Assembly: GCA_036630325.1 (NCBI GenBank)
Contig: CP142737.1
Span: 1-64,000 of the forward strand
DNA length: 64,000 bases
Direction of reading: 5' to 3'
DNA from: Vairimorpha necatrix
Lineage: Eukaryota
Shown: piece by piece, positions 2,187 to 60,500 of the stretch
Position numbering within the stretch: the stretch's first letter is position 1
Layout of the letters: each line of letters begins with the position of its first letter
The notes under the pieces: model-generated
What the model was told of the DNA's origin: nothing
Seen by the model: the letters and a program-made list of their open reading frames with translations, nothing else
The model's database searches: none
Translations under genes and position numbers: made by a program

Positions 2187-2347
2187 ACGTAAGCTTTTAG
2201 CCCTCAAACCTTCGTGAATTTTTTGTTAAAAAAATTTATTAGTTAAATCAATATGTAACTAAAATAAATAAAAATTGAAAATTTGTTGATAAAATTTATC
2301 TAACTATCTTTATAATTCAATTATTTTTTTTCAGATTAATGATTATA

Positions 2348-2386
2348 TGTTATACATTTATTTAATATGAAAGTTCAACCCTAAAA
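2348..2386 (-). repeat. 3' mini-LTR (39 bp, diverged)
   Basis: tgttatacatttatttaatatgaaagttcaaccctaaaa aligns with 5454-5491 and abuts the PPT. Confidence 0.75.
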
Positions 2387-5300
2387 TCCCCCACCAAACG
2401 GGTAGTCTCACGTTACAAGCTTTTAATTTTCCATTTTTATAATCTTTTAGGTCATAATGTTGTTTCTTAATGTATCTTCAGCTATCAGTCCTTACAATAT
2501 AAGAATTATTCTCAGACTTTCCCCTCCTTTTATCAACATTTGTAAATCTTCCTTTCATACTTTTCATCTATTTACCCTTGTTTTTTCTTATTGCAATTCT
2601 CACAGCCTGATCTACTTCAAATTTTTCTCTATGCCTTAATTTAAAATTACTTGAATACACACCCTTTTTATTGTTTTCAATAAAGACTTATTTTCCTTGT
2701 TCTTTCCATGCTTCAATTGTGTTGAATTAATCGCTGTGTGTAAGAATTATTAGTTCTTACAGCTTGTTCTAGTTTTTCCTCTGGGTTTCCTTCTTTTTCA
2801 TGGATCATCGATTCCCTTATTGTTCAAATACATCGTTCTATTCTTCCATTACTCCTATGAGCTTCTAAACATACTCTCCATTGCATAATTTCGTTTTCTT
2901 TACACCAAGTTACAAACTTCTCACTGAAAATTCTTTGCCGTTATCCGTAATATATTCATCTGGGCATCTATTTTTCTAAAATTTTAGTAATAACATCACA
3001 TCCCTAAATTCCATCTTTGCGTGACATACTCTTGTTCTAAGTAGTCCATCCCTAATAGCACGTATCTTTCTATTTCCCCAATATCCATTACGTCATAAGC
3101 TACTTTTCTAATTTCTTAAATGCCAAAAAAAATTGCCACCCCCGATCGTTTTTCTGTTATTAATGCTACATATTTAACAATTTTTTAGCGATGTGGTTAT
3201 CTGGTCCTTCATACCTGGCCAGTACCATCTTTGTATAATCTTATAATGTGTTCCCTTAACTCCTCGATGATTTAATTCCTCATGAACTCTACGAATTTCT
3301 GTTCTCACTTATTTCTTTGTGTTGTATTTATTAATTTCTCCTGTTGAAAACTTCCAATAGTTTTTACCTTTTCTATTAACCATGCGCTTTATTTCTTTTT
3401 CTTTCATCTGTTTTTGGGCCGTTTCTACTTTCGCTTTTTTACTTTCACTTCGTTTTTTTAAATTGTCTACTATGAGCATATAAATACGTGATCAATTCTC
3501 CTTTTACATATTCAAAAATAAAATCGAACTCTTGTATATATTCTATCCATCTCTTAATTATGTAATTATTGAAAAACGGTTTGTTTCTAATCTCGGCCAG
3601 TGATTAATGATCTGTTATTAAATGAATTTTTCTCCCTCACAAATCTGACTCAAATTTCTTTATTCCGAATAACACTGCCAACATCTCTTTTTTACTAATC
3701 ATATATTTTTTATCTGTTAATGTTATCATTTTTGATGCCTATTGTATCGGAATCCACCTATCTATCTTGTATTCACGCAGAAGTATGGCTCCAATTCCCG
3801 TATCGCATGCATCTGTTCTTACTCTAAATATTTTTTTACTATCTACTATTTTTAATTTTTTCATATCCTTTAAACCCTCTTTGATATCCATAAAAGCTCA
3901 TTCCATATCTTTGAACCATTCCCATTTAACATCTTTTTTTAGTGCTTCTGTAAGACGTGCTGTCCGATAAGCATACTTGGGAATAAAATCTCTAAACCAG
4001 CTTGCCACCCCAAAAATCTCCCAAGCTCTTTCATGTTGTAAACCTTCTGTATTCTAATGTTTCTTGCTTTTTACTTTCGTTTTGTGTAAGGTCTTTTTAG
4101 TTAATTGTTACTCCAAGTAGTTATACTTCTCCTTTATATTGTATCTTTTTTAAGTTTCTTTTAATCCACAAGTGTTAAATTTTCGAATTACTTGTTTTAA
4201 AAAATTTTCTTGTATATTACTATCTCATGCATAAATAATAATATCATCCATGTACACCTCAACACTCTTGCCTCTAAACTTATCTAAAACTCCGTTCATC
4301 ATTCTTTGCATAATATGGGGAGCATTTTTTAATTTTTTACCATGCCATTCCATTAGTAAACTCTACCATTTATCTTAAAAGCTGTCTTATGTTTGTAAGC
4401 TCTCTCAATTATTATATGATTGAATCTTTCCTTTAGGTCTATAACCATAAATACTTTAGAACCTTGCGTTGCTTTAATATGTCTCTAATCAATGGCAATT
4501 CATACGGATCTTTTTATTCCAGTTCATTATAAGCCATCAAATTGCTTCTCAATTGTACTTTACCATTTGGTTTTTCTATGGGCTTTATTAGGCTTTTCCA
4601 TTTGCTCTTTGTCTTTCTGATAATACCTCTACTTTCTAATAAATTAATATACTTTTCTAACTTTTCTCGGTGTTTATAAGGAATATTTTGTTTCTTTTGC
4701 ACTACTTTCACTCATTGTTTTGTTTTAAAAGAACATTTTATCCCTGTTAAGTATTTTCTTTTCTCTTCGTCTTTTCACAATACCTCGAAAATTTTCCTTC
4801 TAATTCTTCATATTTATTAATATTTTTTCTTCTTTTATCTTGGTTTGAATTTTTTACATAAAAACTGTTTCTTGAGTTCTCTCTTTCTACCTCCACTGGT
4901 TGTCAATTTAAAATATTTCCTTAAATATTTTCATTTTACTATTATCACGAATGCCAAAATATTTAACACTTTTATTTTCATTAGTCTCTTTCTGTCTTCT
5001 TTACGCTCCATACAACCTCTAGCTATATGTATAATTCTTCGACATATGAACCAATGTTTTTCTTCTCGTCTTTGATATTGAAAGTTTATACTGGCACTGC
5101 TACAGTCCTAGTCAGCTATTTTTTAAACTGCTTTTTTAATTTTTCTTATATTTCCTCTACCAAATCTTCTAGTTCTCTACACCTTATTTTTTCCTTGTTC
5201 TTATTCTCTTTCTCTTCACAACTAATTTATCAATTTCATATATAATATCATACCAATTTATCATACTAATTAAATTTTTATCAATAATAAAATTTTAAAG

Positions 5301-5453
5301 TTCAGTAATTACTTGTTTCGCTTTTTCGTTGTCACATCTTGTACATCTTTTTGCATTATGATGATTGTCTCACTATCCGAGCTTCTTTTAGTAAGTTTTT
5401 TTTCTCTTAAATACAGGTCTCACTTGTTACCCTTTCGTATTTTGTGTTCGCCA

Positions 5454-5491
5454 TGTTAAACATTTATTTAATAGGAGGTTCGATTTTAACA
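5454..5491 (-). repeat. 5' mini-LTR (38 bp, TG...CA)
   Basis: tgttaaacatttatttaataggaggttcgattttaaca; on the minus strand it is followed immediately by a TGG-starting PBS. Confidence 0.75.
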
Positions 5492-8400
5492 ATATAATTA
5501 AAACTTAAAGTATTTTTGGTGTAATTCTGCAAATAAATTTATTTAATTAAATATTGTAAAAGTAAAAAATTACTTCTTTAATTTGCAATATATAATATTG
5601 TTAAAAAGGTCATTTTTGTGTTTTAACATATTGTTACTGAAAATATTCGTATTACACTAAAAAAAATAATATTTTAGCATATTATACAAATAACTTAAAT
5701 CTCGAAAGCTGTACTAACGCATATATACAGAAACAGAAACTTATACTCTTTAGGAAAACTTATGATAATGACTTTGAAAAAAAAATTGGATCATTATTCC
5801 AAGAAGTAAAAGGACTTAATAACTTGGAAACATTAAGGACTTGATTCCAGTGTTTATCTGAAAATTCAATAGAAATAACTAATTACATTTGAATATTTCA
5901 GTATAAAATTATGTGATATTAAAATAGATCTTTGAAAGTACTTAAGATTTATCAGATTAATATGATTTAATTAATTTTTATAAAATAAAATATTTTCGCA
6001 AAAATTTGTTTTTTTGAATTTTTTATGAATATTTATATCTACTTGGCTGCTGCATAGGGATGAGGCTTCTTCTAATGTACAATTCTATTTATCTATGTAT
6101 TTGCCTAACTGTCCAGGAAGTCTTTTATAATTACAAATGTTATTGTGTCTATTTTTTATGTTCTCTTTGGGATTCAAATTTTCTATGGTAGAAAATATTA
6201 TATTTTAAAAGTAAGGGGGAGTGAAAATATTGGATAATTGAAAAATAAATCCTATAAAAATCTTATTTGATATGTTATCATATTCCCTAGATATGTTTTG
6301 TTTATGTTTATATATTTTCTTTTATAACCGTTAGATTTACTTCATGCTTGATCTTCATATAATTTCAATTATGAAGAGAACTAGTTTGATATATTTTATA
6401 ACCAGTTAAAATTGTTAAATTTTTGCGTAAAAAATTGCGAATAGTTTAAAAGTAACCTATCATTATCTATAAAAATGTTTTACATAATGTGTTATGTTAA
6501 AATGTTATTTTTTTATGAATAAAAGTATTCATGTATTATTAAAAAATTTTAATTTTTTTATTAAATCATTAGATTGATTTCATTCTTTAAAAATCAAAAT
6601 GTTTATTCCAAAAAATTCATAAAGATTTTTTTGTTTTCATATTTAGAATTTAATTTATCAATATATTATTATATTTTTTTAATCAATTAATATTTAAATT
6701 AAATTAAATTTTATAATTATTAGAAATCGTCTACTGCATCTATATTTAAAATGTAATCGGGGTAATGCATTAAAATATTTACTGTCATTTTTAAAGATAA
6801 GATTTGTTTTTTAATTTATATGTTCTTACATTAAATTTTTCTTAAATTTATATAAATATCTATTAATTAGTTGCATTGGGGTTTGTTTATACTTTTTATT
6901 AACCCTTCAAGCTCTTATTGATTTATATTTTTTTAATTCTTCGGTTAGTGTAAAATATTTGTTAATAAATTTACCAATTCTGTATTTGTTTTGTTTTAAT
7001 TTTATCATAATTATAGTATTAATAATAAATACGTGGAATATATGATGTTTACTAGAAAAATTCAAATGAAGAAATACGAAATTTATTTTAAGCCTACTTT
7101 TGTGTATAAATTTACAATTTGTATATATATTGATTATCTTATCATTTGAAATGTATTTAATATGTTTTCTGACCATTATTAGATTTATTTCTTAATTATT
7201 TATCATTATTTTCATTGAAATAATTTTTTGTTTTGATATTTTATAATTTTTTTACAGTCTATAACCAAAAATTTCAAAATACTGTTGTAATAAATGATAA
7301 CAGAATGAAATGTCGTTTGTTGTGTTCCTCTATATATGTTTATATTTTATTTTCGTTGTATGTCTTTATGTTTCTTTGAGACTTTACTTTTTATAAATGA
7401 ATTTTTTTGATATTATGTGGTTTATATAAGCTACATTTTTATAATAATTTTAAAAACTTAAGTTAAGCATAAAAAATGAGTTTTTAGATATAAAGAACTT
7501 TTTAATGCTTCCTTGCGATTAATAGTATTTAATGTTTTACCATAAGAATAATTTAAATCATTTTTAAAACTTTATGAAATAATGATTGTAATTTAATATT
7601 TTTAATCTACAATTTTCTAAAACCCTCCGTGATATGGTTTCTTTTGAAATACAAATATATGAAATTTTTTAATAGATTATTTTTAGTATTTTTGTAAATT
7701 TTTCGTTATTGAATCATATGTTTCTCGTGTAGGTTGTATATATCATCATGTTTAATATCTAGGTGTAATATATTGCATTTTAAATTTTCGATTGATACAT
7801 TATTTTTAAAAAAAGATTAAGTCGTTATATGTTCTAAAACTATTCCTTATTTTAATCAGTCGTATATGTATTATTAAGAGCAAAATTTGAAATTATAAAA
7901 TTTTATAATGATCAAAAAATATTATTTTCGTTATAGTGGTTGAGACTTCGCGCTTCAAAAGTCGTAAAAATTTAATTGTATAAAAATTTTCTTCTTTTTA
8001 CTTATCTAGAATTTTTTTTAACGTTTAGTTTGAATATTTTTTATAACTATTCTAGATATTAACATTAATTTTCAAAACGAGTTTTAGTCCAATACGTTTT
8101 TTTTTAAAAAAAGTTATCCTACTACTTTAAATATATTTTCTTTTAATTATTTTTGTAATATTAACCTCAAATATCATTATTGAAATTGCATTTCGAAATA
8201 TATTAGTTTTTTCAAAGATTTTTATTGGCATTATTTTATTTTACTTGTTGATAAATCTTTGTGTATTAAAAATTTATATTGAAGTATAACTTTTCTTGAC
8301 CTTTTCATACTTAAATTTAATCTAACGCATTTTGTAGAACTATAGACAATAAATAATATCATAATTAAATTTCAATTTTTCTTCAAAAACATTTTAATAA

Positions 8401-27991: not shown

Positions 27992-28995
27992 TGAATTTTT
28001 TTTTCTTGCAAGTAAGAGGTGGGGAGAAACCTTACATAAAGACCAATGGGATTTGGTTATGATCCTCATTCAACTGGTACTGTGAGATTCTTACTCACTA
28101 AAACTCCCTCCATACAACTTGCCGGTGCAGCAAGCTCCGTCGTACCATTGGACTTTAACTCCAGGAGAACACTTTCCATTTATACCTCAAAGCAAATATA
28201 TTTTACAAGCATAGTTATCTATAACCCGAGGAGAGACATTATCGTACTGACTCAAAGGTCCCTACAATCATCTGTATTGCACACGGCTCCTTATACGACC
28301 ACATCCCCAGCCCGCCGTTTTTATTGGGCTGCGTTGACAATCAGTCTCCCACTAGTTTCGGCCACCGTGTTACAGAATCATGTAGGATATGGTCCACGAG
28401 ACCTTCTATTGCCCTACATCGTCTAGTCTCTTGGTTAGCTCTAGGATCCCACTCTAGAGTGCACCAGCTATGGGCTCCAACTAGGCCGTACCTATTTGAT
28501 ACTTTTATGTATCATTAAGTTACCAAAGGGTGATACTGCTTTTGGGCTTTGAGGTGCGTTATACACTAGATGCTAATTATCTTGTGTCTGGACACACACA
28601 AGTTTCATTGAATCAACTTAATGATTATCGTGGACATTTTCATCATCTGAGTTGTTCCAACTGCATCATAGAAAGTAGTTACAATTTTGGTGCCCCTAGG
28701 AATCGAACCCAGCCATTGCTCAATGGAAGCATAGCATTCTACCACTGTGCTAAGGGCACCTCCCGTTTTGTATATCCGAAGTGAAGTCACTCGTGACGCG
28801 ATTTGAGGTATAAATGAATGTGTTTTCTTGGAGCCAAAGCCTACTGGATACGGCAAAGTTTGCTGCTCCGGCAAGTTTTATGTGGAGGATTTTAGTATGT
28901 AAACTTCACAGTACCAGTGTGATAAGGATCACTTTTTAAATCTCTCTAAATCCTTTTAAAGTTTCTCCTACCTCTTACTTGCATAAAAAAATTCA
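27992..28995. other. ~1-kb GC-richer foldback locus with ~200-bp imperfect terminal inverted arms and a densely base-paired interior (structured ncRNA or non-autonomous element)
   Basis: Arms 27992-28191 and 28802-28995 are complementary. Nested internal stems: CAAATA/TATTTG, CATAGTT/AGCTATG, TAACC/GGTTA, GAGAGAC/GTCTCTT, AAGGTC/GACCTT, CCTACA/TGTAGG, TCTGTA/TACAGA, ACACGG/CCGTGT. Confidence 0.7.
28688..28760 (-). tRNA. tRNA-like module with atypical D and anticodon arms; identity ambiguous (CAT or TCC register)
   Basis: Acceptor GGTGCCC/GGGCACC plus A, A-box TAGCACAGTGG, T arm CTGGG-TTCGATT-CCTAG, 4-bp anticodon stem TGCT/AGCA. No oligo-T terminator follows. Confidence 0.6.
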
Positions 28996-30355
28996 AACAT
29001 AAGTTTGTAATCTGAAACCTATAATATCATTTTTTTTTGGTAGTTATGGATTATGTGAGTTAAGGAATGCAGCTTTATTTTAAAATTTAACATTATGATG
29101 AATTAAATAAAACTAGTAGATTAAAAATGACTTTTATGTTGCATTTATTGCGAACTTTTATTTAAGTAAAATTATTTTGAGTTTTGATACAAAAACAAAA
29201 CTTTTTCTTTGAAAAATAATCCTCAAATAGTAATAATATAACATCTAGAATATATACAATGACTTATAGAAAAATTCATATAAATTAATGTGCTAGGTAT
29301 GATATTTACATGATTTTTGTCTATATAAAATATATATATATATATAGCGTTTCTGATCTATAAACCTACTTTTTAATCGTATCATATATAAACGGATTAA
29401 ATTTTACATAAACACTTACTTGGAAAGCTATTACGAAAAAAACTTATGTAATATTAATGATATTATTAAAAGAAATAACGGATTATAAATTTAAAAAGTT
29501 AAGGTAATTTTAAAGCTCGAAATATATATATTCAATTAAATCGAAACAGTATATTTAATTTACTTATTACTGCTCTTCAACAATTTATTTAGCTACAATG
29601 TTGTTTATTTGTTAAGTTAATGGGTCATTTTACATTATCATCAGATATTTAAACAATATTATTTTGTAATATTTGCGGATTTACAGATTTAAAATTAATA
29701 ATTTTGTTTATATAATTTTTTTTGATAGTAGAATAAGCAAATACGTAACATGGCATCAATATTGCATAAAATTATAAACAACTCACGTGATCAAACAATT
29801 TTTTCACATCTTTGTCAAATACATAATGTATTGCATTGAATTTTTTCGTAATTTCTAGCGTGATAGTAATTTATTTTATTGTATCTGATGTTTTCTTATT
29901 ACTAGTCTCTACATTTAATGTCTAATCGAATTATCAGAATAAAACAAGACTATGTAAGTATTAACAAGAAAAATATAAAATTAACGAGCTTTTAATTATT
30001 TGTTATTTTATAGAAGTCAAATTTGACTAAAATTCACTTTCAATATTGCACAAAAAATTATTTATTTTGACAGTAAAATTGATATTCATAAACATTTAAT
30101 TAAAATTTAAAATTCAGAACTAAAAAATAACATACAGTAGCATATAATTGATGCCTTATGTGCTAAAAAAACTTCTCCCATGATTTTGAATGTTTATAGT
30201 AAGAAAATAGTTCTTAATTTATTTGCTAGTATTTATATTCAACTGTTTTAAAGTATAACATATAAATTATCTTAAAATTTTTTATCAGATGACATTCGGC
30301 TTGAGTTACTTGGCAGTTGTCATTTGGACTAAAAATTCAGTAAATAAATAAACCC

Positions 30356-31234
30356 ATGTTTTCTAATGACAGTTTTGCGTACAACAATATTTATAAGAAA
30401 TTTATTGGCATGCTCATGTATAGTTATTTTTTACAAAATTTAGTGGTTTTTTGTGCAGAAATTGTATATGTTCTTCCTTTTGGAGATAAATATGTAGATA
30501 TTTATATAGGCCTAACCGACAGCAAAATACCAATAGTCTACATAATAAAAGAGCCTGTATGTTTTGATAATGATAATAGTGCAATTGTTAAATATAATGA
30601 AACATCAAAAAGGCAAAAAACTTTAGAAACACATTATTTTAAACGTGTTACTTCTGATCAAACTATGATTCTTAGACAAATTTTAAATTGTCATGAAATG
30701 CTAAAAAATGAAGATATTAAGTTAATTGATTTATTTATAAGAAGTAAAGTTATTTTGATGACAACAATTCAACACGATTTAGAACAGGCCTGTTCTATTA
30801 ATTTAATAAAAACAAACGATTTACAAGTTGTAGACTCGATTTCAACTAGTGGTAAACTTAAACTTGACTTTCATAGATCTATGGAAATATATTATATACA
30901 ATGGTCAACTATATATAATAGACTCAGTAATAAAAAAGAAATAGATGTTGATAATCGATGTATAAACCCTCTATTGAGATCTGAGAAAACTTGTTATTTA
31001 AACAAAGAAAATGTTGATATTTCTTTTGATGAACTATCATGTTCGCAAAACAAAAAATTGAAAACAGAAAAAGTTATATCAAAAATTGAAGATATTTCAA
31101 AAAAAGATCTGGAAGAAAATCAATTTAATTTGGGTAACTCAGACGAAGAGCTAAATTTCGAAGATCTAATTAAACAATACGAAGAATTGGATTTATCCTC
31201 CATAAATTCAGAATCTGACGATTCTATGAATTAG
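30356..31234 (+). CDS. Hypothetical protein, 292 aa, hydrophobic N-terminal segment and acidic C-terminus
   Basis: Long ORF in stop-rich AT DNA; AAACCC directly before the ATG; AATAAA just after the stop. Confidence 0.75.
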   Translation: MFSNDSFAYNNIYKKFIGMLMYSYFLQNLVVFCAEIVYVLPFGDKYVDIYIGLTDSKIPIVYIIKEPVCFDNDNSAIVKYNETSKRQKTLETHYFKRVTSDQTMILRQILNCHEMLKNEDIKLIDLFIRSKVILMTTIQHDLEQACSINLIKTNDLQVVDSISTSGKLKLDFHRSMEIYYIQWSTIYNRLSNKKEIDVDNRCINPLLRSEKTCYLNKENVDISFDELSCSQNKKLKTEKVISKIEDISKKDLEENQFNLGNSDEELNFEDLIKQYEELDLSSINSESDDSMN

Positions 31235-35628: not shown

Positions 35629-35737
35629 TGTAGGAAGTGCCACATATGTCAAATATATTGTGTCTGTGTTTTGATATATTTGACATGTTGTTTCTTAAAT
35701 ATTTTATAATAAATAAACCCATGTTTTCATTCCAACA
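35629..35737 (+). repeat. 5' LTR (109 bp)
   Basis: Identical to 39219-39327; contains a hairpin and AAACCC-ATG. Confidence 0.95.
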
Positions 35738-38700
35738 ATTTGGCGAGAACGACAAGAAAGAGTTGATATTTAGAAATGAAGAGGATGATGACCCACAGCA
35801 GTTCGTGGAGGACATTTTAGAGGTGGGGAGGTTGCTGGAGTACAGCGAGGGGAAACTGATGCTCCTGTTCAAAATGTCTCTAAAGGATGAAGCGAGAGAC
35901 TGGATTAATTCACTGCCAGTAGGACTTAGATTTGATAAGCTAATTGAATTATTTAAAGAAAGATTTTTTAGTAAAATGCAGTTAAAAATATGCATTGATA
36001 AACTTTCGGCGTTAGTATACCATGGAGGCTCGATTTTAAATTATTTGGATAAGATGGCGGGACTAGCACGCAAAGGTAATGTCCCGGAGAGTATATTAAT
36101 TGCCTTTGCGTTAAAAGGACTACCCAAGGATTTGGCAAATTTGGTGCTAGTAAATAATAAAGATACCTTATCGTGGAGGTACATTTACAGAGCTCTGAGT
36201 AATATGAAGTCAGCGAATGTCCAAAGATATACAGAAGTGGCTCGAGGAGAATCTAGGGAGGTAGATGCGATAAAAGAAAAGGTCTGGTGGAACAATAATG
36301 AGAAAACAGAAAAAAATGGAAAAATTAAGTGTTTTATTTGCGGGAAAAGGGGCCATATAGTTTCACAATGCAAATTCAATAGCTTCCATAAGAATGTTAG
36401 AGCTGTAGAAAAGGCCACAGAGAAGGAGGAACAAAATGAGGAAAATGATTCTTATAAGTTTATTTTTAACTATTCCGTGTCGAAGTCTAAGGACATTAGA
36501 ACAACACTTAAAGCTGCGTCATTAAGCAATTCAGGAGGAAAATTCAAAGTACTGATTGATACAGGAGCCGATTTAAATCTTATTAGACCAGAACTGTTAC
36601 CGAATAAAACTGTTGTTAATATTTCGAAACAACAGCTTAGAGCAGCAAATGGTTCGAGGATAAAAATTATTGGTGAAACGGTAGTTAAAATTAAAATTGA
36701 TGGGATGATATTTGAGGATAAATTCATTATAACAAGAGATATCACAATCCCATGCATCATAGGACATGGGCTACTCGATAAATACAGAATTAGTTTAAGA
36801 TTTGGGGATAATAGAATGGAAATTGAATCTGGACAAATGGCAAAGGGTAAAGCCATAGGATACCATAAAATCATCACGAAGGATGATAACCCAATATTAT
36901 CACAGTTATACAAGTTGGGTGCTGCAAAAGAGGACATAGCATCGAAAATAATAAAAGAATATCTTAGCTTAGGAATAATAAGACCTAGTGAAAGTTCATG
37001 GAGAAGCCCAATAATTATTGTTCCAAAAAAGAATGGAGACCATAGGCTATGCGTGGATTATAGAAGACTGAATGACGTGACGATTAGGGATGCATATCCA
37101 ATGCCCCGTGTAGAAGAATTCATAAACGCATTAGAAGGTGCTACTTACTTTACCAAATTAGACGCTGAATCTGGCTATCACCAAATAGATATGGCGCCTT
37201 GTGATATTGAGAAGACAGCTTTTGCCTGTAGAGAAGGGTTATTCTAATTTACTAAAATGCCATTTGGGCTTGTTAACGGACCAGCTACATTTCAGCGGGT
37301 GATGAATGATATATTAAGGGAATTTTTGTTTAAGTTTGTTGTAGTATATATGGATGATATACTAATTTATAGTAAAACTGAAGAAGACCATAGGAGAGAT
37401 GTTCAAATGGTATTGGAAAAGCTCAAATCGGTAGGATTGAAACTTAATCAGGAGAAATGCGAATTTAAGAAGACCGAGTTAAGAATTTTAGGTCATGTAA
37501 TATCAAAGGAAGGAATAAGGGTAGATGAAGAGAGAGTGAGGAGTATTCAGAAGCTACCAATCCCTAAAAATAAGAAAAAGCTACAATCATTGTTGGGGTT
37601 GTATAATTACTGTGCAAAATTTATAAAAAACAGTCACAAGATAATTAGCCCATTATTTGATATAATCAGGCTCAAGAATGAGGACGCTGAGAACTTTTGG
37701 AAAAATGTAGAACAAAACGCTAAATATCGTAAGGATATTGAAGAGGTAAAACAGGCCATGAAGAGAACGGCCTTGTTGACTATCCCAAACTTGAAAGATA
37801 AGTTCATTTTGACAACAGATGCATCAAACGAGGGATGTGGCGCCACTTTGGCCCAAGTAATTGGAGGAAAAGAAAAGATTGTTTCTTATTACAGCTCCCT
37901 GCACTCAAAGACGGAAAAGAATTACTCCACGACGGAACAAGAACTATTGGCGGTAATAAAATCCATTCAACATTTCAGAGAATACTTATTATTAGGTAAG
38001 TTTACATTAAAAACTGATCATCAAGCTCTGAAATATTTATTTAAGTCTAGAAACGTCAAAGCTAGGCTGGCTAGATGGTCATTGATTTTACAAGAATATG
38101 ACTTTGATATTGAATATATAACAGGACCATCAAACCATACAGATCACCTGAGCAGAGAATTTAAAAAGGAGGGAGAGAATGTTTTGGAAATTCATTTAGT
38201 ACAAAAGAAAGTTATAAAAAAAGAGAGAACATCGGTATTGTTAAAGTTTTATCATGATTTATTGGGCCACGGATCAAAACAAAACATGAAGTACAATATT
38301 GGTCAAAAATACACCTGGAAGCATATGAACAAAGATATAGAAGACTATGTAGACAACTGTGAAGTTTGTCAAAAGGAAAAACCTCAGAGAAAATTTAAAG
38401 ATATTGTACCAGTGGTAGCAAATAAATTAGGAGAAATCTGGGAGTTAGACATGGTAGGCCCTCTGAAAGAGAGTGAGCAAGGATACAAGTTTTTATTAAC
38501 AATGATAGACCATTTCTCAAAAATCGCAGAGGTAGTGCCGGTTTATACAAAGGATATGAATACGGTTGTTCATTTGATTGATAAACATATAGTCAGGAAG
38601 CATGGTGTACCGAAGGCCATTCTAACTGATAATGGCAAAGAGTTCAAAAATAAAATTTGTGATGAATATGCAAAGGTTAAGAACTTTATCTGGAAATATG

Positions 38701-39218
38701 GTTCCCCCTACAAACCTACGACCACGGGGCTTGTGGAGAGATTTAATAGAACAATGGGTTCAAAGTTAAGGAAAATTACGGAATTTGGGAAATTTGATTG
38801 GGCAAAATGCGTTCCTAAATTGGTCAAGGCCTATATGCAGTCTTACCATAGGGCTATAGGCTGCGCCCCAGTAGAACTTATTACAGGAATGGTGCTTAAT
38901 AAATTGGACTTACAGGAAGGGATTAAGACATCAAAAGAAAAGAAAGAATATCAGGAACAGGCCATTAAAAATTTAGAAGCCTACAGACTTGAGTATAACA
39001 CGGGTGGAAAGAAAAATGGTGAGAGTAAGGAAACCATAAAGGTTGGAGATAGGGTCTGGTACTATTTAATTCTCCCTATAAGAGGAAAACTTGAACCTAA
39101 ATGGGAAGAAAAAGGAGTGGTAGTAGAACAAAAATTTCATTCATTTAAAGTTTTATTGGACAGTGGAAAAACAGTTACGGCAAGCCGAAATCATGTAAAG
39201 CTTTTAAAGGAGGGGTAG
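35721..39218 (+). pseudogene. Gag-Pol polyprotein in a single frame with one in-frame TAA at 37245-37247
   Basis: Zinc knuckle CFICGKRGHIVSQC, protease LIDTGA, RT RLCVDYRRLN and YMDD, RNase H TDAS, integrase HHCC and D,D,E (ELDMV, LTDNG, LVERFN). GLF*FTKMPFGL reads through the stop in frame. Confidence 0.92.
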
Positions 39219-39327
39219 TGTAGGAAGTGCCACATATGTCAAATATATTGTGTCTGTGTTTTGATATATTTGACATGTTGTTTCTTAAATATTTTATAAT
39301 AAATAAACCCATGTTTTCATTCCAACA
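39219..39327 (+). repeat. 3' LTR (109 bp)
   Basis: Identical to the 5' LTR; begins right after the pol stop codon. Confidence 0.95.
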
Positions 39328-41304
39328 AATATCATTGAAGAAATAGAACAATTTATAAAGAAGATTGCATCTACTAAAAACATTGACTCTATTGTATTGT
39401 CATACTCACAATATGAATATAGAGAAAGTAACGGAATTGTAAAAAAAATTATAGAAAAGTTAAATCAAATAAATGATGAAAGAAGAATAAAACAGAAAGG
39501 AGCCGAAATTTACTATGAAAATATATGCGTTCGGGGTTGTTTATTGCACAATATTCTCGAGAAGAAGCATAAGTTCAATTCAAAAAACTTATCTAAGGTG
39601 CAAAACCCAGAACCCACGCTGAGTTACCGCAGAAACGAAGACGATAATAGTTACTATCTCGAATTATGCGTTAAAATAAATAAAATCTGTTATTTGTTTG
39701 AATTCGATATGAACGAACTTGACAATAAAGAACTTAATACTATGGTTAAAATAAATATAGGGAATATGTGTCATTACGATGCAAAAATACTTAAGAATTT
39801 ATTTGAAATTTTCAACGTCAAGGATTTATATCATATTGAGGCAAATGGTGAGATTGGAATATTAGAAATTACACCAAACAAAATCGAAAAGATAATGCCT
39901 AAAAAATTCAAAATAGAGATACACCCAGACTTTATAAACTTCTTTGATGGATATAGAAAAAATTCTGTATATTTAAAAAATGAATCAAACAAGGACGATG
40001 GTGAAAAAAAATTTATAAACAATATTTTTTTTAATGAAATTAAGAAAATATTGGAAAAGATTAATTTTATAGCGAATACAAAAGATTATGAATGTGTTGA
40101 ATTTTTTTACAGATTACTAAAAAATTACAACAAAGTTGAATTTCTTATTTTGAGAATAATGAACAAAGAAAGATCTGCATTAAAAATAATATTTAATTTT
40201 ATTATTAAACATATTTACATCGTAGATGAAGATGAATTGGATTACACAACAGGTGAGATAATATTTAGATCAAACAATGAAGAAGATGTTAAAAACAAAA
40301 TGTTAAAAAACTTATCCTATGAATTGTCAGGGAACCAACTTTCCGAATGTTATTTAATAAAAATTTGCCTACTTTTTGAAGCAGAAGAATTTATTAATAA
40401 AAAAAACATAAACAACGAAATTATTTGGGAATCATTAATAGATATAAATGAATATATACAAGAGAAAAATAATGAAAAGATATCTCGTTCAGATAGAAAT
40501 AGCAGATGTATTAATATCGTAAAAATCATAAAGGAAGTAGAAAATTACCATATCCACAATATTATAAAATATAAAAACGAAGTTTTGAAAAATGTCTGGA
40601 AAATAACGTCAATATTTACAGGATTGGTTAGTTCTAGTTTTGTATACAAAGATACCAAGGAAGATTTTAGAAGAAAGAAAATTTGTGAAAACTTTCAACT
40701 TGATGAAAATGAGATAGAGGAAAAGGCCAATATTATAGAAAATAATCTACAAAAAAATACAGATGAAGATGAAGAATATGAAAAAAAGAGAAAGTTAAAA
40801 GAGCAAGAAACAAAAAAAATAAGAGAAATGTTAAAAAATTCATCATTAGATAATGATTTAAACATAATTAAATTAAATCCCCTGGAAGAAGAACTTAAAG
40901 ATATTTTCGACGAAGAAATTGGTACATATTATGAAAATGAGCAAATAAAAAAAGGGAAAATAATTATCGAAAAAATATTTAATGAATACATAAAAAAAAA
41001 TGAAATACAAGAAGAATCTATAAATGAATATAAAAATGAATTGGAAGATGATTTTTTACAAATTTTGAGAAAGAATATAGAAGTTAGATTAAGAAAACAG
41101 GCCCCGATTGAATTACCTAAAGCTTTTAATAATTTATTTGAAAGTGAAATAAAAACATGTCACGTAGAAAAGGTAAAATTAAGAAAAATTTTTGAAAATG
41201 TTAAAATGATGTTAGATGAAACAATAATTCTAGAATTATTGAACAAGACTGAAGGAATGAAAATGCAAAAATCATTTACTAAAGCTTTAGAGACCTTTAA
41301 ATAA
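39328..41304 (+). pseudogene. 3' part of the interrupted host gene; paralogue of the gene at 61931
   Basis: Frame is open from the TSD onward. Shared blocks with the paralogue: KGAEIYYENIC/KGREIYYENIC, FYRLLK, KICLLFE/KICLLLE, SIFTGL/SLFTGL, INEYKNEL/INEYKEEL. Confidence 0.85.
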
Positions 41305-52578: not shown

Positions 52579-54452
52579 AGTTAATATTGTATTTTTAGAG
52601 TATAGTAGATTTTTTTTCAAAATAGTAATTCATATGTATACAAAAAATCTCTTGAGAGCGAATCCTATCAATTATTTATGGACTTTTATGAGATTGAGCA
52701 ATTGTTATACATAACATAATAAAGTATAACTTAAGAAGCAAATAAACACAATAGTATTGGGTCGGGTACAATATTCCACATAAAAATTCCAGTCATGTCA
52801 TTTTGACCTAATATCACTTTATTTAATTACAACCATATAAATATATATTTGGTTCTATAAATAATAGTTGACTTTTTAGTAATTTACGAACTAGATTCTA
52901 TATTTTCTTTTATACTTTCATGTTCATAAAGACTTTATTTTTTCTACCTGTATATATAAAAGAGGATAAATAACCTTTTAATTTTTTTAAAACAAAATTA
53001 ATGGGGAATTTTGATCATATTAAAAGTAAAAGAAAATATTTAGAAATTATTTTTTTCCCTTTAATAAAAAAAAACTAATTATATTGCAAAGGTGCAATTC
53101 ACATCAATGGTAGTAATGTCCCATTAAGTCCCAATTTCTTCTATTTCATCCCACTCTACGCCATTTTTCTATTTTCATGATAGGTTTCTTGTGTAGTGTA
53201 AAAACTGTTATTACTATCTAACTTTGGCTCTTTATATAATTTCAAGCCAACTTCTAGTCGATTTGTTTATGAAATTACATACGAAACGATTAACACAAAA
53301 AACACATCTTACCATAGAGTTATAAAGATTTTTTATCGCATTGGCTTTCAAAAAAAAACTAATAGAATAAGTTATACATGAAAAATCTTTAGAAAATTCC
53401 TTGAAGTCAGCAAATCGTCGACAAATCAGCTTATTTGTACCATGTACAATATCGAAAATTACAAAGTAGTCTTACATGTAATTTTTTATGATAAATTCCC
53501 AAGGCATGTTTTTTGAATATTTTGCTAGGTTTATTACCTTTTGTATATTTAGTGATGAATAAACTTGCCTTACGTTAACGTTATGTTATAGTCTTTTTAT
53601 TTTTTCAAAATAATTCAATCACTCATTCTATGCCATAAATTTTTGTTAAAAGTGAGGAATTTTTACAAGTAAAAACATGATCATACGTAATCAACAACAG
53701 AGATAGTTAATTTAAAATGTTATACATATAAAAACAGTGCTTTTTTCGTAAGGAAAATGTAATGTTTGTTTCAACTCATTTTAATAAACGTTTACAAATA
53801 GGCGATGGCACGAGTAATATTCAGATTTTTCATGATCATTATGTGAAATATAGTTAAAAGGTGTGAAATAATATCTCAAAACGCGACTTAGATTTAAACA
53901 TATTCTGTTTTTAAATATAAAACTTCATTATCCGATATATACTTTGGATCGTCGAACTAATCTAAGAATTTATAATAAATAAAATAACAATTTCTAGAAG
54001 ATGACTCACAAGGCGGTAAATGTCCATAACCTCTGAATATATCAGTATTAATGTTAAGAATATCTCTCTGGTAATAGAGCAGTTTTGCAAACATACTAAA
54101 AAATCAAGCGAAATAGATCATAGTATGCAGATATATCAGCTGAGTCATTTATCATATGCTATTATAAATAAATACAATATACAAAGTCTTATGAGTACCT
54201 TTAAAGCGATCCTAAGATCTAGATTCAATAAAATCCAGGACCTACATTTTTGCAAATGAGAAGGAAAATTTTAGTTATTAGAAAATTCAAAGCTAGAAAT
54301 ATGTGTTTAATAATCATTTTTATGTCCATTAACTATGCATGATTATTTCATATTTATACACAAAAAGAGTAGCAGTAAATTTAAATGTTATTTTAACTTG
54401 GTGCTATTTGCACTCGATTAAATAATTTTCTATGTTATCGTAATATATAATA

Positions 54453-57400
54453 TGTTATAATCAGTAATAATATTAAACCCCAATTATGTTAAGCACTTAT
54501 ATGGGGGCGATACCTAAAGAAGAGTTCACAAGAGAGGACTGTGGCCAAGTGGTCAGAAAGATGTTACAGGAGTTAGAGCGTATATTGTATGAATTGGATT
54601 TGAGAGATGTGGAGAGAGAGAAATGGAAGAGTGAGCTGTTCAAGTTGGCTTCGATGGATTTAAAAGATTTTATTGTGAGAAATATCAAAAAAGAAGAAAA
54701 TATTGAAGGAATAAGGAAGAAGCTATTGTTAAGGATTAAGGAAGTAGAGGAGGAAGAAAAGATATATGAGGAAATGAGAAAAATTATTTCTAGGACTATA
54801 AATGAAGAAATTAGTAGAGAACAACCAAGACAAAAATCGAAATTACCGAGATGCTTCTATTGTGATAGACAAGGGCATAGGGTGTTTGAATGCAGACTGA
54901 AGATTAATAGAGATAATTATTATAAAAAGAATAACAAGGATAACAGTTGCAAAATGGAAGTATGTAGTGAATCAGAGTCAAGTCAGGAGCGAGATTTTAG
55001 AAGATCAAAAAGAGGACTTAGAGTCAAATTTGAGAAAAATCAAAAAGAATATGCCGTTAAAGAGGAGAGTAAGAGAATCAGATTAAATTTAGATAAGTAT
55101 GCTAAGAGTTTTGGAGAGGTTTTTAAGTTAGGAAAAGAGGAGATAGAATATTGTAAACTGGAAAAATGTAAAATTAATACTGAAGCGGGTAAGAAGGTAT
55201 TTAAAAAGGGACAAATGGTTCCGCAGGCGTTGATAAAAGATACAGAGCTACATCTAGAAGATTTATTAAAAAGGAAAGTGATAAGAGAGTCAAATTCAAG
55301 TTGGAGGAATCCTATAAGGTCAATCAGAAAGCCAAATGGTGAGATAAGACTGGTTAGTAATTTGATGGCATTGAACGATATTGTAGAAAAGGACGAGTAT
55401 AGATTGTCTAACATAAGAGATGTTGTAAGAGCTACACAAGGTGCAAAATACATGACGGTTTTCGACTTAAAAGAGGCCTTCTATAGTATTGAGATAGAGG
55501 AGGAGGATAAACATAAGACGGCGTTTGATTTTAATGGCAAGGTTTATGAATGGAACTCTATGGTTATGGGATATAAGAATAGCCCGCAGATATTGCAGAG
55601 AATTATGGATAGGATTTTTAGAGATATGAAAGGCAAAGGAGTAGAGGTGTATATGGACGATATTGTGTTGTACAGCCGAACGATAGGAGAACACGAGCAA
55701 TTAGTGAAAAGGGTATTAAATAGACTGAAGGAAAACAATATGAAGCTGAATGCAAATAAAGTTCAGTTTTGTCAACGTGAAGTTAAATTATTGGGAGTCA
55801 CTTTAAATGGAGAAGATATAATACCGTCAGAGATAAAGAAAAATGAAGCCCTAGAGTTTCCGATACCAACATGCGTGTCAGATGTAAGAAGATTTTTAGG
55901 AATGACGGGTTGGTTCAGAGATTTTATTAAGAATTACGCTGGATTGACAGTTAGGTTGACAGATAGTTTAAAAGGGAAGAATGATAATTGGAAGTGGACG
56001 GATGATATGAAAAACGAGTTTAATAAATTAAAAGAAGTATTGAAAGGCCAAGGAAAGCTGCGAATAGCAGACTATGATAAAGAATTTTTGTTGAGGACTG
56101 ACGCTAGTAATGTAGGCATGGGCGCAGTACTGTTACAGAAAAATAATCAAGGAGAATGGGTGCCAGTACAGTGGGCGTCTAAGAAGTTTACCGTTACGGA
56201 AGTTAATTATGGTATATCAGAAAAAGAAATGTACGCAGTTTTTTTGGGGCGTTAAAAAGTTTGAATATGAATTAAGAGGTAGGAAATTTAGAATAGAAAC
56301 TGATCATAAAGCGTTGGGCGAAATAAGAAACAAGCCCGACTTTAAGAATGCTAGAATTAATAGATGGGTCGAGAAGATTCAGGAATTTGATTTCGTGATA
56401 GAATATAGAACTCCAGAAAATATGGTCGTAGCCGATGCGCTAAGTAGGGTATATACAAAAGAAAAAGATGCAAAGAAAAAGAGAAATGAAATACGCCGTG
56501 ATAGACAAAAAGAAGGGAAAAGAAATAAGCATGTAAAAATTAAAGAAGGTAAAGAATACTGGGTATTTGATAGTGGTAGAGAAGGCGAGATGCCTTTGGA
56601 ACAAGACAGAGAGAGATTAATAATGGATTGTCATGTCAATTTGAGCCACAGAAGCAGAACAACGGTATATTATGAGTTGAGGAAACAGTATTATTGGCCA
56701 GGAATTAAGGATCAGATCGAAAAGGTCCTTAAGAATTGCGAGACTTGTCAGATTTTTAATAGAAAAACGAGTGGCGGTACTGATTTAGTGAACACGACAA
56801 GATATTTAGAGAAGGTTGGCTTAGATTTAATAGAATTTAGGGATGAGAAAGCGTTTATTGTTTTGGCAGTTGATTACTTTACAAGGAGATTATGGGGCAG
56901 AGTATTGAAGAGCAAGCACGCATCTGGAATTGCCGAATTTATCAAGGATTTGTGTAAACAGGGTAGAAAACCAAAGGAAATCATTACGGATAATGGTAAA
57001 GAGTTTTGCAACGAAAAAGTTACCGAGCTATGTAGAAATTTGGATATTAGTCATAGAAAGGTCAGCGTTGAGTCGCACAGAAGTAATGGAAGAGTAGAAA
57101 GAGTTATTAGAACTGTAAGAGATAGTATTTTAAAGAGCCAAAAAGAGAAATTCGAGAACAAGGTTTATGAAGCTATTGAGAAATATAATTTAAGTTTTCA
57201 TGCTGGTATTAAGTGCACGCCAGTAGAAGCTTTAACCGATAATACAGGAAATGTTAGTATGGAGAATAGTCCAGAGGGAAAGTATGCGCAACAGTTCAAA
57301 AGTTGGTTTAGAGAAAAGTTCAAAAGGAACCAGATAGTTAGGGTTGCCAAGAATGAGAATTTAAAGGGATGTAGTAAGTATAGTAAGGGTCGATTTTTAG

Positions 57401-57595
57401 ACATGGGAAGAGTGATTGAGCTATGTCCAGGGGATTCATATATAGTGAGATTAGAGAATGGAAGGTTGGTGAAAAAAAGGCATTATGATCTTAAAGGTGT
57501 AGGGGATTAAAGTATGTTGAAGGAGACTAACCGTCTGGAGGGGGGATGTTATAATCAGTAATAATATTAAACCCCAATTATGTTAAGCACTTATA
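54453..57595 (+). mobile_element. Compact Ty3/Gypsy LTR retrotransposon (3143 bp) with 49-bp LTRs and no protease
   Basis: Identical direct repeats at 54453-54501 and 57547-57595, TSD TAATA (54448-54452, 57596-57600), PBS TGGGGGC at 54502 (tRNA-Pro-like 3' end), PPT GGAGGGGGGA directly before the 3' LTR. Confidence 0.93.
54486..57510 (+). pseudogene. Gag-RT-RNaseH-integrase polyprotein with one extra T in a T7 run (56239-56245)
   Basis: CFYCDRQGHRVFEC knuckle, RT YMDD, RNase H TDAS, integrase HHCC and D,D,E (GLDLI, ITDNG, RVER). Deleting one T gives EKEMYAVFWGVKKFEYEL and fuses the two ORFs. Confidence 0.9.
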
Positions 57596-60500
57596 TAATA
57601 TTTTTGTTGGAGTTTATTTAAGATTTGTATCTTATTATTGTAGAGTTAATATTTGTTTATAGAAATTTTTATATTTTAGAGAACTAAGAAATAAATGTAA
57701 AAAATGTTTTGGTAATATTAAATATTCAATTATTAATTGAATTATACTAACAGACATTTAGAATACTTTTAAACGTTCACAATATTACTTTATTTGGGGG
57801 TTAAAAGCTTGTATAAAAAATATAGATTTTTTCTATTGTATATTTGACATAAAAATATGAGCTCATGGGTTTAATCAGTGCACTGTGTTTTATTATAAAA
57901 TTCATTTTTTCGCATCAGACTCACATATCTTATAATACTATTGTATAAGATATTCATAGTAAAAAAAAATTTATCTATATTCATTGAATTGATTATTAAT
58001 TCTTGGCAAACGGTGCATGAAATTTACTTTATGTTAAAATTTCTCTAGCATAAAAAAATATGTAACACGATAAATTAAATTAACTTAACGTATCAAAAAT
58101 ACAAATTCACGTTAAGGGTAATTTCTTAAGGTATAATTATGAGATTTATCTAGTAGATTTAGTGAACACATGCATGATCACAATTTTATAACACGCCAAT
58201 CATTACTTATGCAATAAAAAAAATTAATGCAAAGCCATAACATTCGTAATAGTTATATAATGGAAAAGGTGGATCTAACGCAAGTAAATGTAAAGATTTT
58301 ATTTCATACAGAGAAAATCTACTTTTATGTTCCATTGATCCTGCTTATAAATATTTTTTGTAGTAATTTTATTTTAGATTAGAAAAAAAATGGTAAAATA
58401 TTGACACGATCATTGTTAAAACCCCTGCGGCAGTTTTCATTGCTAGCAAGTACAATATTGTAAGTTTTGGAAGTAAAAGTTTTACAGTATGGTACAGAGA
58501 TTATCACAGCTGAGAGTCTCTTTGATCGTATAGGAAAGTTTCTTCAGCCTCTTACTTGTAAAAAAATTATTCACTACGATAATATCACTTCATATGCTAA
58601 GGGGAATGTTTTTAGATCAGATACAGAAAAAACAATTGGTTTTTTTACCAATGTAACTTTGAGATTTTGCATTAAGAAAATTTATTAGGCTTAGTTCATA
58701 AAAAATAGTAACATAGAAAAAAATCAGATATTGACACACCAAAATGACATACTAGAATATTTAAAAAAAGACTGTTGTTTAAATGTCATATGCTGTAGAC
58801 TTAATTTAAATAACTGTTCATATTTTCTTATATTTTTGTATTTTACAGCCATTTTAAATTTTATTGTTTACATTAAATGATTTATGTGGAAAAAAACAAT
58901 TTATTTAGTACATTATGCTCGACTTCCTGCGAAAGAAATTTCTTGTAAATTTTAATCTTAACTGTTAAATACATTTCTTCTGTAAATAATTGCGTAACAT
59001 GCTTTGGACAAGATTCTTTTTTAATAACAACAAAAAAAAAATCCGCAAACAAGCTTTTTTAGTCTTTTAATTTCTTCTAAAATTGTCAAAAGTAGAATAA
59101 AAACGTGAAAAAATCAAATCTTATCTATGATATGCTAAAACTAAAAAAATATGACCATTAGGATTAACTTACTTTTGTTGACTAGTTTGTTTATATTTAT
59201 ATTTTAAAATAATAGCTTAAGTCAGTTACGTTCTGATTATTATCCATTTTGGTTGTAATTGATATAATTTCAATAATATCCTTATGAGACAGTATAGTAT
59301 CAAACACAATATCAAATGCTTTTAAATATTGTTTCCCATTGATTACAATATTAATAATTTTATCAGGAACATTAGAAGTTTTCATCACATATAAACATTT
59401 TTCAGTCGGCGTATTATCATACCAGAATTATATAAATCAACTGTAACGGACTTTTTTTTATCAAAAGGTGCAGCTATTTGATCGCTCTAGAAATTTCTTA
59501 TCCATTAATTCGCTGTTGTTAAGCAAAAATATGAACTTTTTATATCATTATTTGCATAATTAGGATTGATTGTGAAGCTAGATACTTTCAATACTGCAGT
59601 AAATAAAAACAATTAGAGTTTTCAAAATTTTCATTTATTTAATGAAAAATATTGATACTCTAATATAAAAAACATATTCATATGATTATGAATAGTTTAC
59701 AAAATCACGATATTAAACTGGCGGTACTCTATCAGATAAAAATATAATGTTAGGAAGCTACATATTTGGTCTTCGCAGATTGCGGGGATTAATCAATATC
59801 GACTATATATATAGCGTTATGACAATGTTCATAGCTTTAAATAGAACAAATGCTTATAAGACAATGTAGGTCATCTGATAAGATAAACAGAAGGTTCAAG
59901 TATGCATAATATAATAGAAAACCCAATATTGTGTTTACAATTCAATAGATAAAAAAATATAGACATTGAGAATGCTAATAACCTATAAATTTTTTTTAAA
60001 TATTTGTAAAATTTTAAATCTAACTACTTCTCATGTTTTTCAAAGAAGTTTCAGATTAAAAAAATATTTTGGAAAAATCATAACACGTGTAACTATTTCA
60101 AAATCTTTAATCAAATTTTATCAAACAATTTTTACAATTTCTAATTGTCTTTGAATATTTTAAAACAGATATTAGTAATGTTAGTTATTGAAAAAAAATA
60201 AAAGAGAATCTAAGAATGCTATCGTAAGAATTTTACAAGATCCTCACATTTTCTTTTTTTTTCAAAAAAAAGCTTTTGTTAAGAGTTTTCTTCAAGCGTC
60301 TGAAAAATTATTATTAGACATTTATAAGTTTTATAGAACTTCACAATTTATGGTACAAATATATGCATATATTTTCTCTTATAAAACTTTTATAGAAAAT
60401 CATACACAAAATATTATAAAAAAAGATAATTCTTCATTAAAGTAACGTTGATAGTATGGAAATCATAATCCGACATTTCATTTGTTTCTATCGGCGTAAT

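Follow-up and report, generated by a model that had tools for sequence, protein, structure and literature searches.

Among the microsporidian LTR (long terminal repeat) retrotransposons on record, the closest counterpart of the element considered here is ‘Aalg retro L’ of Anncaliia algerae. Its complete consensus has an LTR of 50 bp, an open reading frame (ORF) at 32-3049 and a total length of 3,127 bp; retro S, CK and BU have LTRs of 45, 73 and 90 bp, in the remaining complete LTR consensuses the range is 105-272 bp, and for most A. algerae consensuses the ORF starts inside the LTR (Parisot et al., 2014; PMC4202319, Table S1). Retro L was counted 19, 20 and 45 times in three strains (Table S2) and stands in ‘Microsporidia Group 1’ beside Nbom_C and Nbom_Nbr5 (Fig. 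S1, text version). Read by eye, its consensus (File S1) begins with TGTTATA, carries ATTAAATAAATACCC directly before the first ATG and crosses the LTR border as AACA-TGGCG. Here we describe an element of 3,143 bp (copy 1, 54453-57595, plus strand) in a stretch of 64,000 nt from Vairimorpha necatrix, positions 1 to 64,000 of the forward strand of contig CP142737.1 (GCA_036630325.1), hereafter called the window. We consider it likely that copy 1 is a genuine and recent insertion of a multi-copy, protease-less Ty3/gypsy-type element of a Nosema/Vairimorpha-type microsporidian, with an LTR reduced to 49 nt.

The shortest LTR lengths found in literature text were 85 bp and 76/90 bp. The accessible part of Gao et al. 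(2012; PMC3281118) gives the former for FRetro129, a SMART element that is called the smallest LTR retrotransposon reported, and the latter for the autonomous copia element FRetro64. As described in that part, both resemble copy 1 in their very short LTRs and in a 5-bp target-site duplication (TSD), and their ends are TG..CA. However, FRetro129 is non-coding and 292 bp long, FRetro64 is a Ty1/copia element of 5.2 kb, and their LTRs are almost twice as long as those of copy 1.

The boundaries of copy 1 are listed in Table 1. A repeat search of 54000-58000 returned a single direct repeat of 100% identity (54452-54502 / 57546-57596), which reads 51 nt because both copies happen to have an A in front and a T behind; the LTR proper has 49 nt. 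In the window, which has a G+C content of 26.0%, an exact 49-nt pair is expected by chance 1.6e-16 times. The preliminary description of this locus had claimed identical TG...TA repeats within a 5-bp TSD, a primer-binding site (PBS) adjoining the 5' LTR and a polypurine tract (PPT) adjoining the 3' LTR, and the repeat search together with reading of the sequence gives all four; we call the third PBS-like, its pairing with a tRNA being putative. The 5' LTR contains TATAAT at 54456-61 (LTR positions 4-9), ATTAAA at 54472-77 (20-25), CCCC at 54478-81 (26-29) and the first in-frame ATG at 54486-88 (34-36). The roles proposed for these motifs below are putative assignments.

Table 1. Coordinates of copy 1, of its decayed relative (copy 2) and of a third retroelement in the window.
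Feature	Position	Strand	Basis or remark
Copy 1, left TSD, TAATA	54448-54452	+	Read from sequence; identical to 57596-57600
Copy 1, 5' LTR, 49 nt, TG...TA	54453-54501	+	100% identical to 57547-57595
Copy 1, PBS-like site TGGGGGCGATACC, translated	54502-54514	+	Starts with TGG at first base 3' of 5' LTR
Copy 1, ORF1, 589 aa	54486-56255	+	ORF list, Pfam
Copy 1, CCHC knuckle in ORF1, residues 122-137	~54849-54896	+	C-x2-C-x4-H-x4-C
Copy 1, reverse transcriptase in ORF1	~55323-55805	+	Pfam RVT_1, 1.4e-36
Copy 1, RNase H, first half, in ORF1	from ~55995	+	Pfam RT_RNaseH 1-58
Copy 1, T7G4 run, frame break inside RNase H	56239-56249	+	ORF1/ORF2 overlap in different frames
Copy 1, ORF2, 433 aa	56209-57510	+	ORF list, Pfam
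Copy 1, RNase H, second half, in ORF2	within ORF2	+	Pfam RT_RNaseH 51-105
Copy 1, integrase zinc domain in ORF2	~56602-56763	+	Pfam Integrase_H2C2, 1.2e-14
Copy 1, integrase core in ORF2	~56821-57057	+	Pfam rve, 1.2e-10
Copy 1, PPT GGAGGGGGGA	57537-57546	+	Last base adjoins 3' LTR
Copy 1, 3' LTR, 49 nt	57547-57595	+	Repeat search
Copy 1, right TSD, TAATA	57596-57600	+	Read from sequence
Copy 2, decayed relative, 3,144 bp	5491 down to 2348	-	Repeat and protein comparison
Copy 2, TSD, TATAT / TATAA (4/5)	5496-5492 / 2347-2343	-	Sequence
Copy 2, 5' LTR, 38 nt	5491-5454	-	30/39 columns match 3' LTR
Copy 2, TGGCGAACAC, adjoins 5' LTR	from 5453	-	Sequence
Copy 2, PPT GGTGGGGGA, adjoins 3' LTR	2395-2387	-	Sequence
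Copy 2, 3' LTR, 39 nt	2386-2348	-	30/39 columns match 5' LTR
Protease-bearing gypsy element, 3.7 kb	35629-39327		109-nt identical LTRs, TSD AATAT, PPT AAAGGAGGGGTAG

That the 49 nt are the whole repeat follows from copies at other sites. We used two public runs from two studies (X1 and X2), in which 73% and 61% of sampled words were present; contigs were aligned to the window at ≥80% likeness, and contig depth serves as a rough guide to copy number. In X1 the contig of the left flank had a depth of 3.9, compared with 37 and 34.5 for the element contigs covering 54482-56283 and 56254-57574; relative to the window, these two contigs show 12 and 6 letter differences and one gap each. In X2 one contig runs past 57595 into a flank unlike that of the window and another carries T20 before 57547. 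These junctions put the ends of the repeated unit exactly at the outer edges of the LTRs and reveal further copies elsewhere, so that the repeat is complete with 49 nt and the element is multi-copy. One X1 contig has a variant LTR that shares the first seven bases, TGTTATA, then diverges and again has a TTTTTACCCC block, which indicates that sibling lineages have short LTRs of their own, alike in this end and in the C block. No empty site, that is a contig joining both flanks of copy 1, was found among the X1 and X2 contigs listed, and no solo LTR of either short-LTR lineage within the window. The summed depth in X2 at 54416-55111 and 57432-57663 was ~2,500-6,100, several times the ~200-900 of the middle; this excess at the ends may come from a multitude of variant contigs, from truncated copies or from a library effect.

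The same junctions bear on the idea that the repeats were once ordinary long LTRs, shortened to stumps by deletion in copy 1 alone, as could be imagined from the range of 105-272 bp in which most of the remaining complete gypsy consensuses from microsporidia have their LTRs (Parisot et al., 2014; PMC4202319, Table S1). We regard this as extremely improbable and close to refuted. The two repeats are identical and fit exactly into the space that the TSD leaves on one side and the PBS-like site or PPT on the other. In X2, contigs link each outer end to a different sequence. Total length and LTR size are matched by copy 2 and by retro L of A. algerae, and a frame that runs from LTR position 34 to 36 nt before the 3' LTR leaves no room for lost sequence. 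The different flanks in X2 thus bear out the view, implied in the preliminary description, that the short LTRs are not remnants of long ones.

The layout of copy 1 recurs in two other elements. The first is copy 2 on the minus strand of the same window, for which the preliminary description had given LTRs of 38-39 bp and nearly the same total length (3144 vs 3143 bp); these values hold, and the copy is diverged and heavily decayed, with 73-96 stops per frame. In its LTR pair the 3' 20 nt match at 19/20 and the 5' halves are only weakly alike, so the LTR limits rest mainly on the adjoining GGTGGGGGA, the adjoining TGGCGAAC and the 4/5 TSD. The best relative of copy 2 is the protein P0016 (40-57% amino acid identity, in 7 pieces over 3 frames). 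Its identity to the copy-1 protein is ~33-38%, and copy 2 therefore represents a related lineage rather than the same family in the strict sense. The second is retro L, which compares with copy 1 as 3,127 to 3,143 bp in total length and 50 to 49 bp in LTR length. Its ORF starts at position 32 of the LTR (34 in copy 1), ends ~28 nt before the 3' LTR (36 in copy 1) and, with ~1,005 aa, is as in copy 1 too small to hold a protease. The start has the same arrangement of TGTTATA..., ATTAAA/AATAAA, CCC, ATG and AACA-TGGCG. Retro L differs in its genus, in a PBS-like site TGGCG... instead of TGGGGGCG... and in an LTR end CA instead of TA; the LTR termini are TG...CA in copy 2 as well. Having ~3.1 kb, an LTR of ~50 bp and a single ~1,000-aa ORF from inside the LTR (54486-57510), copy 1 is retro-L-like, a likeness by layout alone. 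The earlier claim of a family architecture instead of a one-off deletion therefore stands as far as the recurring layout is concerned, but the two copies of the window form a clade and not one family.

The coding content of copy 1 is that of a Ty3/gypsy element. A gag(CCHC)-reverse transcriptase (RT)-RNase H-integrase frame, counted from the first ATG to the stop and interrupted by a single break, takes up 3,025 of the 3,143 bp (96%). It starts at LTR position 34, inside the 5' LTR, and ends 36 nt 5' of the 3' LTR. ORF1 comprises a helical N-terminal Gag-like part, the CCHC knuckle, a linker free of a protease, the RT and the first half of RNase H; ORF2 continues with the second half of RNase H, the integrase zinc domain, the integrase core and a C-terminal part. 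The second ATG (54501-03) spans the last base of the 5' LTR and the TG of the following TGG, so that the PBS-like site is translated. The zinc knuckle C-x2-C-x4-H-x4-C is present in 18 of the 21 related proteins of ≥930 aa, and the zf-CCHC profile matches with E 0.04 in copy 1 and 1.2e-5 in P0009. Among the 18 relatives with a CCHC knuckle, 14 begin with M-[GA] or M-x(2-5)-M-[GA], which fits a conserved A-TGG junction. A sequence search of the PDB with the Gag part gave only weak matches to the knuckle (E 0.11 or higher). Non-autonomous miniature LTR elements of the TRIM or SMART type were considered and ruled out, as 96% of copy 1 is gag-pol frame.

For the RT-RNase H and integrase parts, the best solved relative is Ty3 of Saccharomyces cerevisiae (7q5b, E 1.1e-90; 4ol8, E 2.2e-76); in the Ty3 Gag-Pol polyprotein, the match to the family profile runs from residue 608 onward (RT-RNase H, E 1.1e-90). 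Ty3 has 340-bp LTRs, separate GAG3 and POL3 frames, a protease and a length of ~5.4 kb. Copy 1 shares with it the RT-RNase H-integrase order, the CCHC knuckle, a 5-bp TSD, a PBS-like site and a PPT; in contrast, it has a 49-nt LTR, a single frame, no protease and a length of 3.1 kb. Of the features of Ty3/gypsy elements (Metaviridae), terminal repeats with a TSD, the order of RT, RNase H and integrase, a zinc knuckle and a PPT were found, and an aspartic protease between Gag and RT was not.

Several lines of evidence concern this missing protease. Firstly, protease family profiles gave no match at E≤5 in any of five family proteins (copy-1 ORF1, P0001, P0003, P0009 and P0012), while in the same search the other gypsy element of the window (35629-39327), serving as positive control, matched RVP (1.6e-4), gag-asp_proteas and Asp_protease_2. 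Secondly, no D[TS]G motif lies between the CCHC knuckle and the RT in 17 of the 18 relatives with a knuckle; P0002 has one DSG. Lastly, a structure model of ORF1, built on a 10-row alignment and of low confidence (mean predicted local distance difference test (pLDDT) score 60.5, predicted template modelling score 0.37), has four helices at residues 21-112, and its residues 143-244, at the position of a protease, are mostly at pLDDT <50 with hardly any strands. The linker is thus predicted to be disordered without a beta-rich fold, which at this low confidence gives weak support for the lack of a folded protease. The copy-1 element is without a protease, a feature that the preliminary description had missed.

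The polyprotein would work unprocessed or be cut by a protease supplied in trans. In the latter case, protease-bearing gypsy elements such as the one at 35629-39327 would process the polyprotein and perhaps lend particles, and the copy-1 element would not be self-sufficient. From the sequences this seems rather unlikely. A protease-bearing element is indeed present in the same window and no family member tested shows a protease of its own. However, the protease-less design is kept in intact frames of ~1,000 aa with 45-69% identity in several microsporidian genera, which argues for long independent success, and the candidate helper is merely 27-33% identical in RT and integrase.

Relatives place the element in microsporidia. 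In a protein search in which 8,000 candidates were scored (threshold E≤0.001), 98 proteins were related to the copy-1 polyprotein. The best one, P0001, has 1,014 aa and is 68% identical, and the named relatives come from Vairimorpha necatrix, Nosema granulosis, V. apis and Enteropsectra breve. The contigs of the best protein matches are 3.0-3.2 kb long, but these lengths are uninformative on LTR length since assembly graphs break in repeats longer than the word size. Scans for related DNA gave 14 loci in metagenomes, the best two of which (L001 and L002) are the same element with 50% identity, two partial loci in genomes, on contigs labelled as bacterial metagenome-assembled genomes (MAGs), and none in viral sequences. 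The loci L015 and L016 and the proteins P0030, P0032, P0043 and P0047 are on contigs of ~1-3 kb that are filed under the bacterial MAG names Turicibacter, Clostridium, Bacteroidales and Aeromonas. Such MAG-filed relatives are probably eukaryotic contigs that were binned by mistake.

An LTR of 49 nt leaves little space for the signals of a retroviral cycle, and the gene signals of microsporidia suggest how they might be accommodated. As described in part of Peyretaillade et al. (2009; PMC2803860), genes of E. cuniculi have 5' untranslated regions of <7 nt, an A/T-rich signal followed by a CCC-like motif immediately ahead of the ATG, and AAUAAA or AUUAAA ~20 nt ahead of the site of cleavage; N. 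ceranae and A. algerae are reported there to share the signals upstream of the ATG. In the window, only 4.3% of all ATGs have CCC within 20 nt upstream. Outside the transposable elements, one of the two ORFs of ≥200 aa has CCC before its ATG, a comparison that is underpowered (n=2). If replication follows the ordinary retroviral scheme, U3 would be the first ~26-32 nt of the LTR, with the integrase end TGTTA, the A/T-rich hexamers and the CCC block, and transcription would begin around LTR position 27-33, only a few bases ahead of the ATG of position 34. ATTAAA (LTR positions 20-25) would then belong to U3; since it lies upstream of the transcript start, the RNA would lack it at the 5' end, and it would be active in the 3' LTR alone, where it would direct cleavage ~20 nt later, near the LTR end. 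This would leave ~8-20 nt for R and ~0-10 nt for U5, minus-strand strong-stop DNA would have at most ~23 nt and the first strand transfer would take place on very short homology.

Self-primed reverse transcription as in Tf1 would be another way to start the cycle. Here the CCCCA of the LTR at the 5' end of the RNA would fold onto a UGGGG at the position of the PBS, and this pairing does appear in the minimum-free-energy fold. However, it comprises just 5 bp, compared with ~11 nt of complementarity in Tf1-type elements, the fold is no better than that of shuffled sequences (z = -0.31; 71 of 200 shuffles fold as well), and inspection by eye shows no such complementarity in copy 2 or at the start of A. 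algerae retro L. We therefore consider self-priming very improbable. In the most far-reaching scenario, a natural, coding lineage would complete the whole retroviral cycle with LTRs of 38-49 nt and no protease of its own, hold core promoter, integrase ends, transcript start, poly(A) signal, cleavage site and start codon in <50 nt, use an R of at most ~20 nt and let the PBS double as codons; on this complete scenario our judgement is evenly divided.

A number of observations weigh against our reading of copy 1 as a recent insertion of a genuine short-LTR element, or against parts of its proposed replication. The LTR ends with TA and not with the usual CA, and identical LTRs of only 49 nt have little dating power. 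L001 and L002, each on a contig lacking one end, show no recognisable LTR pair. The window's single tRNA does not fit as a partner of TGGGGGCGATACC, and, in a comparison of four elements, the PBS-like sites diverge after TGGCG. The first ATG inside the LTR is not conserved: 6 of the 14 M-[GA] relatives begin directly at the second Met, so that the true start codon and the transcript start may lie later and R be even shorter. The compression of U3, R and U5 into less than 50 nt, as stated in the preliminary description, follows from the identical LTRs and the TSD if replication is canonical, but every border between the three regions is drawn from microsporidian promoter and poly(A) motifs. Furthermore, the frame is broken inside RNase H, at a place that 8 relatives of ~1,000 aa read straight through, and in X2 contigs with a shorter T run account for only 231.9 of 4,617.4 summed depth. 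Lastly, 5 of the 18 listed substitutions relative to X1 are synonymous and 13 non-synonymous (18.7% synonymous expected; p = 0.28), that is no better than neutral, with no sign of selection at this short range.

If the frame break is real, copy 1 itself is probably inactive. It could then be a dead fossil in which both the RNase H frame break and the early stop are real mutations, its siblings alone being mobile. Besides the break at the T7 run and the neutral-looking differences from the X1 contigs, the contigs of both runs point in this direction: all X1 and X2 contigs that cover 57506 have one extra T there, which places the stop codon a few codons downstream, and some differ at 56239/56241, where X1 contigs with a T run one letter shorter make up 96.3 of 131.7 summed depth. 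On the other side, the differences at 56239/56241 and 57506 are single-letter changes in homopolymer length, a common assembly error, and each of them may be a mutation or such an error. Moreover, the LTRs are identical and copy 1 shares ~99.4% identity with the X1 contigs, with 18 differences listed. To us a dead copy 1 is just as credible as an intact one.

The third retroelement of the window offers a comparison. Like copy 1, the element at 35629-39327 has a promoter-like block and a start codon in the LTR (AATAAATAAACCC-ATG at the end of the 109-nt LTR, ATG at 35721), a translated PBS-like site (TTTGGCGAGAAC, 1-2 nt after the LTR) and a 5-bp TSD; its frame is broken once, near 37250. It differs in its 109-nt LTRs, its protease (RVP 1.6e-4), its length of 3.7 kb and its 27-33% identity to copy 1 in RT and integrase. 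A 21-mer of its LTR, AATAAATAAACCCATGTTTTC, also heads a host-like ORF of 292 aa at 30356 (window 30343-31234), which is either a host gene that shares this promoter and start context or the captured end of an LTR. The window is otherwise very gene-poor. Outside the three retroelements and a telomere tract it holds only two ORFs of ≥200 aa (30356-31234 and 39709-41304), neither with a Pfam match; a Pfam search of three host-like ORFs of the window gave no match. Its single tRNA lies at 28688-28760 on the minus strand. Positions 2-2185 consist of ~2.2 kb of telomere-type repeats with 309 CCTA and 184 CCTAA units (TAGG/TTAGG on the other strand), which indicates a chromosome end, and copy 2 begins ~160 bp inward of them.

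The architecture is not new to public data. It was tabulated in the supplement of Parisot et al. (2014; PMC4202319, Table S1, retro L), and no discussion of it was found: in the part of the main text that was available the words ‘protease’, ‘PBS’ and ‘bp long’ do not occur, and none of the 12 LTR passages covered, of 17 in total, discusses LTR length. A literature search, whose coverage did not include Xu et al. (2006) on the Nbr elements, returned no text on microsporidian LTRs <100 bp or on protease-less gypsy elements. The comparison with published microsporidian elements that the preliminary description had proposed leaves limited novelty: the layout is on record, and no text describing the design was found in that search. 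Copy 1 is real and extreme in its design but not without precedent; it adds a new member to a kind that is already on record, though undescribed.

The value of this family therefore lies in description and testing and not in discovery, its design having been public since 2014 without comment. Elements with such short LTRs are invisible to finders that require a TG..CA motif and at least 100 bp. Settings of this kind, LTRharvest with -minlenltr 100 -motif TGCA, are used in the LTR_retriever preprint, and so the expectation that elements of this kind would be missed at a minimum near 100 bp is justified. Repeat content and recent activity of transposable elements in microsporidian genomes are thus likely to be under-counted. 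If the lineage does complete its whole cycle with these LTRs, they would set the lowest known natural bound for what an LTR and an R region need. With mapped transcript ends, the family would be a natural minimal model for the shortness of U3, R and U5 and for a protease-free gypsy polyprotein.

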